The position numbers were made by a program, and so were the translations under genes. The notes under the pieces are model-generated. The model did not search any database. It saw only the letters and a program-made list of their open reading frames with translations, and was not told the origin of the DNA. Below are positions 44,683-45,147 of a stretch of DNA of 64,000 nt, piece after piece (the first letter of the stretch is position 1; every line of letters starts with the position of its first letter). Location of the stretch: the NCBI GenBank assembly GCA_964016885.1, contig OZ024746.1, positions 87,668,001 to 87,732,000 on the forward strand, read 5' to 3'. The stretch is from Eledone cirrhosa (lineage: Eukaryota).

Positions 44683-45147
44683 TTATAGAATATTTTCGAA
44701 ACAGAGAGGGAATTTTGTAATTATAATTATAAGCTATCGCCGCATTTTGACTAAAGAAATTAAAGAAATTATTTAGCCTGATAGTGGGGTTAAGAACCCT
44801 CGGAGAAATGGTAAAATGATGATAATTGACGTACATGGGAGTCGAACCCACATCCTTGTTTATCTAGACCATGGTACTACCATTACACTAACATATCACC
44901 CGTCTTTTCCATTCAAATTAGAAGCTATAATCTTAGCAACTGTAATGTCAAATAAAAATTTTTTTTGTGTAATGGTAGCACGGTGGTCTGGATAACCAAA
45001 GATGTGGGTTCGACTCCCGTGCACATCAATACTCATCTTTTTCCATTTCTCCGAGGGTTCATAACCCCACTATCAGGTTAAATAATTGATTTAATTTCTT
45101 TAGTCAAATACGGCGATAAGCTTATATTCATAGTATTTATAATTTCA
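44683..45147 (-). mobile_element. Fold-back insert in (TA)n carrying tRNA-like sequence
   Basis: Arms ~44710-44888 and ~44967-45147; unpaired tail 44683-44710. Confidence 0.85.
44828..44897 (-). pseudogene. tRNA-like cloverleaf (Pol III A and B boxes); partial mirror at 44967-45028 (+)
   Basis: GATATGT-TA-GTGTAATGGTAGTAC-C-ATGGT.CTAGATA.AACAA-GGAT-GTGGG.TTCGACT.CCCAT-GTACGTC. Confidence 0.75.

Follow-up and report, generated by a model that had tools for sequence, protein, structure and literature searches.

A hammerhead-less, tRNA-bearing short repeat of Eledone cirrhosa, inserted into (TA)n in the manner of Penelope-like elements

Insertions of Penelope-like elements (PLEs) have been described as bearing partial tandems, an inverted 5′-truncated copy, a tail of 30-40 bases on one end and a bias towards (TA)n, the last of these reported for Naiad, Neptune and Hydra PLEs (PMC8557442). 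Both the way in which PLE templates obtain their ends and the purpose of the hammerhead ribozyme are regarded as open questions (PMC8557442; PMC11167929). Naiad and Chlamys, for example, are PLEs that spread without a hammerhead (PMC8557442), and hammerhead cleavage proved dispensable in vitro for an Anolis PLE, whose tail lies between two internal start sites of reverse transcription (Frangieh et al., PMC11167929). Non-LTR retrozymes, which are defined by their hammerheads, have been proposed to be non-autonomous PLE derivatives (PMC7229834; PMC7761336; bioRxiv 10.64898/2026.07.22.740005); as described, those of animals are non-coding monomers of ~170-400 bases, dispersed and in tandem, with a type I hammerhead in each unit, and many share sequence with a PLE pseudo-LTR. 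Abundant circular RNA is a further mark of non-LTR retrozymes. In addition, MRC1 (PMC8557442) and the short non-autonomous Penelope elements of Heliconius (PMC6685494) form head-to-tail multimers with pseudo-LTR-like ends and no ORF and, as a rule, have 3′ sequence in common with an autonomous family. The closest precedent for the element reported here, as far as the published accounts consulted extend, is schistosome Sm-alpha, in which Pol III transcription is combined with a hammerhead: Sm-alpha and Sj-alpha are short tandem or dispersed repeats, apparently transcribed by Pol III with an upstream unit driving the next, an active hammerhead cuts the multimers of Sm-alpha, and tRNA-Gln-like copies in S. 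mansoni have been matched to the Sm-alpha family (PMC6765202; PMC2770079).

We compared with these systems a locus at 44683..45147 of a 64,000-nucleotide stretch of the Eledone cirrhosa assembly (contig OZ024746.1; the whole stretch is called the window), for which a preliminary description, made from the sequence alone, had proposed a tRNA-headed, non-autonomous element inserted by PLE rather than LINE machinery. The locus proved to be a single insertion belonging to a dispersed, multicopy, non-coding repeat family, and all of the sequence so described was found there. Its two inverted arms lie between (TA)n targets, an interrupted one on the left (44622..44681) and (TA)48 on the right (45148..45243). 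The long arm (44683..44956, minus strand) is one whole unit of ~270 bases of subfamily A that runs from the last bases of a previous unit to a long, tailed 3′ end, and 218 of 238 bases (92%) match the commonest letters of that subfamily. Read 5′ to 3′ on the minus strand, it comprises a conserved leader (44899..44947) made up of a small hairpin, an AT-rich block and the purine-rich 5′ strand of a long stem; a tRNA-like module recognised by ARAGORN (44826..44898), with the A box at 44890-44880, an anticodon-like loop at 44867-44861 and the B box at 44848-44838; a T run (44813..44816), T4 here and T5 in the family, which is likely both a Pol III terminator and the 3′ strand of the stem between leader and trailer; a GGGTT/AACCC hairpin with a variable 3-base loop (44787..44799); and a tail of ~38 bases (44683..44720) found on this arm alone. 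Across the fold-back junction (44948..44964), which consists of the end of the previous unit and A/T filler, the short arm (44965..45146, plus strand) is a 5′-truncated, tailless copy that extends from the D arm to a short 3′ end, with its B box at 45007-45017 and T5 at 45038-45042, and matches subfamily A at 165 of 176 bases (94%). The arms overlap over ~170 bp, close to the ~180 bp first given, and are identical at 146 of 165 positions; both belong to subfamily A and are older than the intact full-length copies chosen.

The layout first described, with (TA)n flanks, inverted arms and a short tail on one side, was thus borne out, and the T run behind the tRNA is indeed on both arms. The tRNA-like fold that had been assigned to both arms is a full cloverleaf on the left arm only, the right arm beginning at the D arm; there, positions 10-63 of the Rfam tRNA model match at 44967-45020 (plus strand) with 32.5 bits against a cut-off of 29. 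The tRNA does not stand at the head of the element but in the middle of the unit, because the left arm runs ~50 bases upstream of it and reaches the end of the previous unit. The common SINE of the window is a different repeat, as had been said, its three copies compared showing resemblance only at the level of the A and B boxes.

The family is large. Exact matches to the hairpin motif, which covers subfamilies A and B, number 3,203 in this 3.0-Gb genome, those to a tRNA motif 1,355 and those to a tail-stem motif of all three subfamilies 2,602, against none for the reversed control in each case, the counts being of arms rather than loci and missing diverged copies; a single-copy origin, as by local inversion of a tRNA pseudogene, does not hold. 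A search with the family in its own genome gave 153 matches among the 40 candidates scored of 2,670. In all three motif counts one strand is in excess, by 140-280 matches, and one large head-to-tail array may be the source of this skew. Since in a ten-unit array with a 272-base period the tail of each unit is followed directly by the leader of the next, the unit of ~270 bases is the whole element, without an ORF, and its period falls within the 170-400 bases of the non-coding tandem monomers of non-LTR retrozymes. The three subfamilies (A, B and C) are 87-91% alike, and full-length copies are about 97% like the commonest letters of their own subfamily, a value biased upward by the choice of intact copies. 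A metagenome scan for the family gave no matches. Among contigs from two runs of unrecorded kind, the family was present in one organism and in only six low-depth contigs of the other, which speaks neither for nor against its expression. A tandem amplification of 7.1-7.2 kb (contig C2, 314.53-314.62 Mb) carries one insertion of the element together with LINE and PLE scraps; it was considered as a partner of the element and rejected, being a passive amplification that holds one copy.

Insertion patterns were scored at 78 loci, which remained after overlap removal from 99 of the first 100 hairpin-motif matches on one contig (C1), the largest cluster being scored at each. Every locus contacts (TA)n, on both sides in 66 and on one side in 12, and 124 of 128 3′ ends adjoin it, compared with 10% of random window positions. 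This (TA)n is a target and not a tail, because 21 of the 28 single-strand insertions have it on the 5′ side as well. Target duplications cannot be read inside (TA)n, and a LINE-type tail is missing, as had been observed, no A tail having been found. Outward-pointing fold-backs make up 50 of the 78 loci, with the tRNA strand outward in all 50, and in 39 of these a long end is paired with a short end, the two ends lying ~40 bases apart in subfamily A and ~60 in subfamily B. Sixteen of the 78 loci continue head to tail past a unit boundary, and exact head-to-tail junctions of subfamily A number 193 genome-wide, those among the 100 listed being dispersed over four contigs (C1-C4). The 3′ ends are fixed, at two sites, while the 5′ ends are variable and the position of the fold-back junction varies freely.

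Each of the marks described for PLE insertions is found in this sample: partial tandems whose 3′ end is fixed and whose 5′ truncation varies (16 loci, and the 193 junctions), an inverted 5′-truncated copy (50 loci), a tail on one end only (39 of 50 fold-backs) and the (TA)n bias (124 of 128 3′ ends), and the one-sided tail, of ~40 bases in subfamily A, fits the 30-40 bases published for PLE tails (PMC8557442). The proposal of PLE-type rather than LINE-type insertion of a non-autonomous element is therefore supported by (TA)n, fold-backs, tandems and tail, and we hold the dependence of the element on a PLE to be very probable. Copies lie in (TA)n at all 78 loci, ordinary SINEs outside (TA)n being absent from the sample, and are folded back at 50, the other 28 loci being single-strand insertions.

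Two accounts that dispense with a PLE can be weighed against this pattern. An ordinary tRNA-derived SINE, moved by a LINE that targets microsatellites and inverted by twin priming, would explain the A and B boxes and the 5′ truncation, and the genome does contain LINE-type frames. Yet the same 3′ part is present in duplicate, once in each arm, with two distinct fixed ends; the tRNA is preceded by 50 conserved bases; head-to-tail junctions are seen repeatedly, at many loci; and an A tail or LINE-like tail is absent. The duplicated 3′ arms largely refute this account, which we consider very improbable. A DNA-level element, whether a fold-back MITE with TA duplication or a Helitron-type rolling circle, would likewise yield TA flanks, inverted arms and tandem copies. 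Against it stand the free position of the junction, the loci with one strand only (28 of 78), the asymmetric ends, the absence of a CTRR end and the G-U-compatible changes, which favour one RNA strand (five pairs, versus two on the other), and we accord it hardly any probability.

On the strand opposite the tRNA, the preliminary description had noted a hammerhead-like but non-canonical motif (CTGATAG...GAGAAA), and this does occur on both arms. It is the GGGTT/AACCC hairpin read on the other strand (44778-44808, plus strand), and we reject it as a hammerhead: it lies on the wrong, inward strand, combines C3 with A8 where the covariant reported is U3-A8 (PMC4209133), and is found in 12 of 14 copies of subfamily A and 9 of 12 of subfamily B but in none of 12 of subfamily C. 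What is conserved at this place is a hairpin with a variable loop. The canonical hammerhead core is absent from the sense strand in all 40 copies, and the type I hammerhead that non-LTR retrozymes have in each unit is thus missing. Among 150 of the 163 Rfam matches (E<=5) listed for eight loci there was no ribozyme family, only tRNA and repeat-driven miRNA, and descriptors of HDV and twister ribozymes gave stray matches only, in a crude screen whose stem-requiring hammerhead version found one of four controls. A true retrozyme with a hidden or unfamiliar self-cleaving motif, the antisense hairpin included, might be suspected from the several conserved hairpins with variable loops; given these searches and the loss of the antisense motif in subfamily C, it is a reading to which we give scarcely any credence. 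Elsewhere in the window, fold-backs at 11848-12250, 14171-14603, 40914-41333 and 42327-43311 carry canonical minimal hammerheads and a tail of ~85 bases, and here it is the hammerhead strand that points outward, as the tRNA strand does in the present family.

The tRNA-like module begins at unit position 54, with about 53 conserved bases before it, and its A and B boxes are good. In tRNA-derived SINEs, a type 2 Pol III promoter derived from a tRNA stands at the 5′ head, followed by a LINE-derived tail, and target duplications flank the insertion. The present element resembles them in its tRNA-type boxes and differs in its internal tRNA, upstream of which 62 of 81 tRNA-spanning arms continue, and in its PLE-like insertion pattern. 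ARAGORN calls in the fetched loci were tRNA-Ser in 114 of 132 cases, overlapping loci being counted twice. A decoding tRNA-Ser has U33, a purine at position 37, an intact anticodon stem and a long variable arm, whereas the module has a varying position 33, T at position 37, a mismatched top anticodon pair in 36 of 40 copies and a short variable region; a decoding tRNA-Ser gene was accordingly rejected. Its D arm is that of host tRNA-Gln except for one base, and the best of 24 host tRNA-like sequences, which represent few isotypes, was also Gln-type, identical at about 45 of 71 positions and nearly tied with others. Loop positions 33-34 differ between subfamilies, and subfamily B has five acceptor pairs. 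In the tRNA core, 2 of 56 columns differ between subfamilies, compared with 33 of 172 elsewhere (p=0.005), and conservation of the tRNA sequence extends beyond the A and B boxes. The T5 lies ~9 bases after the module, host tRNA genes having T runs at a like distance, and is kept in all subfamilies, with an additional T4 in subfamily C. Judged from its sequence, the tRNA look-alike is likely the element's promoter.

It is also conceivable that a PLE-dependent element carries its tRNA-like gene as cargo, that is, as a self-contained Pol III unit of A box, B box and T5, with the template for reverse transcription coming from elsewhere; perhaps such cargo makes an RNA of ~90 bases, or perhaps it binds TFIIIC and keeps the copy open. 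The layout is like that of host tRNA genes, T5 has been kept although its partner strand changed from A to G (pairs 32-127 and 33-126), and many insertions exist without the tRNA. Truncated copies, however, are the dead ends to be expected in any case, and the product or benefit is purely putative, and we regard the cargo explanation as rather unlikely.

The predicted fold offers a further view of how the element may be read. In the model, leader and trailer can pair in a 17-bp stem under the acceptor. Outside the tRNA core, paired columns vary less (14 of 103) than unpaired ones (19 of 69; p=0.03), the structure having been drawn from the same sequences, and in 13 of 15 copies (30 shuffles each) the tRNA strand gives the better fold of the two strands (z -2.8, versus -0.4 for its complement); the window's own decayed long arm folds no better than its shuffles (z +0.39). 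Covariation is limited to one two-sided change between subfamilies (C-G to U-A), with none in the tRNA stems, and the number of covarying pairs is not significant, as 163 of 500 shuffles reach it. RNAalifold recovered the anticodon arm, the T arm and four hairpins, and did not recover the D arm, the acceptor or the long stem. The short end of the element falls in the loop of the stem that holds the two-sided change, and the long end just behind that stem.

The 5′ ends of the arms are not evenly spread. The main pile, 54 of 122 arm starts, lies at unit positions 111-121, the boundary of T arm and acceptor, and recurs in 15 of the 28 single-strand insertions and in 9 of 14 additional loci, selected as C-type among the tail-motif matches. 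If reverse transcriptase stalls where the T arm is folded, such a pile would follow; microhomology alone may produce it as well, since these positions hold the sole TA-like 5-mer between 37 and 140 together with three overlapping palindromes. A second pile lies at the tRNA start, where 12 of 81 tRNA-spanning arms begin within the interval -4 to +2. One junction is included twice in this figure; 11 of 45 within 6 of 98 bases corresponds to p=7e-5, without correction for a window chosen after seeing the data. Starts here are as expected if the RNA begins at the tRNA, at a site confounded by being a TG-like word.

The second pile could also be read as a cleavage site. Under this alternative, the PLE-dependent element would be copied from Pol II read-through transcripts, and the tRNA-like module would be a processing signal that replaces the hammerhead, RNase P or another tRNA enzyme cutting multimers into monomers that are ligated into circles. 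Multimers of up to ten units would suit a circular template, ends do pile up at the tRNA start, the tRNA is conserved beyond its two boxes, and the difficulty posed by T5 would be avoided. Yet the 17-bp extension of the acceptor, if formed, and the five acceptor pairs of subfamily B would presumably make a poor substrate for RNase P or RNase Z, and 62 of 81 arms do not stop at the tRNA start but continue past it. We consider processing of this kind unlikely.

Our preferred reading is that of a ~270-base repeat without a hammerhead, copied by a PLE into (TA)n from RNA made by Pol III read-through from the internal tRNA-like promoter, and taken as a whole we judge it slightly better than an even bet; the read-through part, which we derive from sequence features, stands at about the same level. 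Pol III would start at the tRNA of one unit and most transcripts would stop at T5, after about 90 bases, while a minority would continue as far as the next unit's T5 and yield an RNA longer than a unit, with the tRNA repeated at both ends. The PLE protein would then nick (TA)n and prime reverse transcription within this RNA, using either of the two sites between which the tail lies, by analogy with the Anolis PLE in vitro (PMC11167929). Synthesis would often end at the boundary of T arm and acceptor and sometimes at the tRNA start, or would otherwise jump to the repeated tRNA and continue into the previous unit, and a second priming would give the inverted arm. The weak point of the preferred reading is that T5, kept in all subfamilies and joined by a T4 in C, should stop Pol III before the tail.

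PLE enzymes are available in the genome, since long open frames of Hydra and Neptune type are both present. Hydra-type frames reach 866 aa and carry RWR, DKT, CxCX5C and, C-terminally, GIY-YIG; a hammerhead lies upstream of the ORF. By its sequence this family fits the published description of Hydra (PMC8557442). Pfam did not recognise its protein. Neptune-type families have open frames of 636-1,096 aa, including 938 and 1,096 aa, and were assigned by the CX4CxxC linker and C-terminal GIY-YIG (PMC8557442). A PLE fragment in the window itself (2964-3584, minus strand) belongs to the large and very abundant Hydra-type family, with 27,526 candidates. A search for sequence shared between three natural units and 71 PLE-bearing loci of both types, a small part of 27,526 and 10,596 candidates, gave no match at E<=0.05, and no sequence-sharing partner came to light in the Hydra-type or Neptune-type families sampled. 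The result also weighs against the preferred reading, since in non-autonomous PLEs already described the 3′ sequence is usually common to element and partner. A CTTG(A) word is found close to both the Hydra end and the long end of the element; having been noticed post hoc, it is no more than a hint.

The element is best read as a hammerhead-less, PLE-dependent analogue of retrozymes that belongs neither to retrozymes nor to SINEs. It is like animal non-LTR retrozymes in its dispersed and tandem non-coding monomers and proposed PLE derivation, and unlike them in having no hammerhead, no PLE-shared sequence among the 71 loci, and a tRNA module, which the descriptions consulted do not mention for retrozymes. 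Nor is such a module mentioned in the accounts consulted of MRC1 and the Heliconius elements, which this element resembles in its multimers, its ends and its lack of an ORF. Sm-alpha, conversely, has the hammerhead, and PLE-type fold-backs, tails and (TA)n targeting do not figure in the published material consulted on it (PMC6765202; PMC2770079). The preliminary description saw no standard class here. We likewise found no description of a tRNA-bearing, hammerhead-less PLE dependant in the titles, opening abstracts or passages of the papers searched, which were mostly non-subscription ones; yet its components have published counterparts in non-autonomous PLEs and Pol III-transcribed Sm-alpha, and such a family could sit in a repeat library such as that of PMC13282606 as an unclassified SINE.

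It is tempting to speculate, as a tentative idea on which the balance tilts towards doubt, that PLEs have SINE-like parasites of their own. These would form a recurring class of very small elements without a ribozyme; a tRNA gene, once captured, would provide a promoter along with the terminal repeat, or the cutting site, for which retrozymes rely on the hammerhead, and each element would bring along its own promoter flank from upstream, given the circular permutation of PLE copying. The element is a natural, ribozyme-free substrate of 270 bases, its two precise 3′ ends lying one within a conserved stem-loop and one behind it, and would thus offer a minimal template for tests of PLE recognition and allow one to ask whether a Pol III unit can replace a hammerhead. 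For annotation it carries a warning: such copies are scored as tRNA-Ser genes and would end up catalogued among SINEs or pseudogenes.

Other elements and tRNA genes were seen along the way. The window contains broken LINE-type reverse transcriptase frames (29364-31761, plus strand). A second, unrelated non-coding element of ~1.9 kb, TA-flanked and with fixed ends, occurs in copies that are 95-98% alike (loci L205, minus strand, and L207-L215); it has a 180-base inverted repeat, one copy of which is terminal and the other internal, and a well-scoring tRNA-like gene with a varying anticodon (GGC, AGC, GAC, GTC, GGT), and was the source of 10 of the 16 Rfam tRNA matches listed. In a tRNA-Gln cluster (contig C1, near 168.217-168.220 Mb; L219), two copies have the anticodon CTA and a changed anticodon stem; labelled Pyl by ARAGORN, they are probably variants or pseudogenes. 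Dense tRNA-Thr arrays (L204, L206) contain occasional anticodon variants (ACT, AAT).
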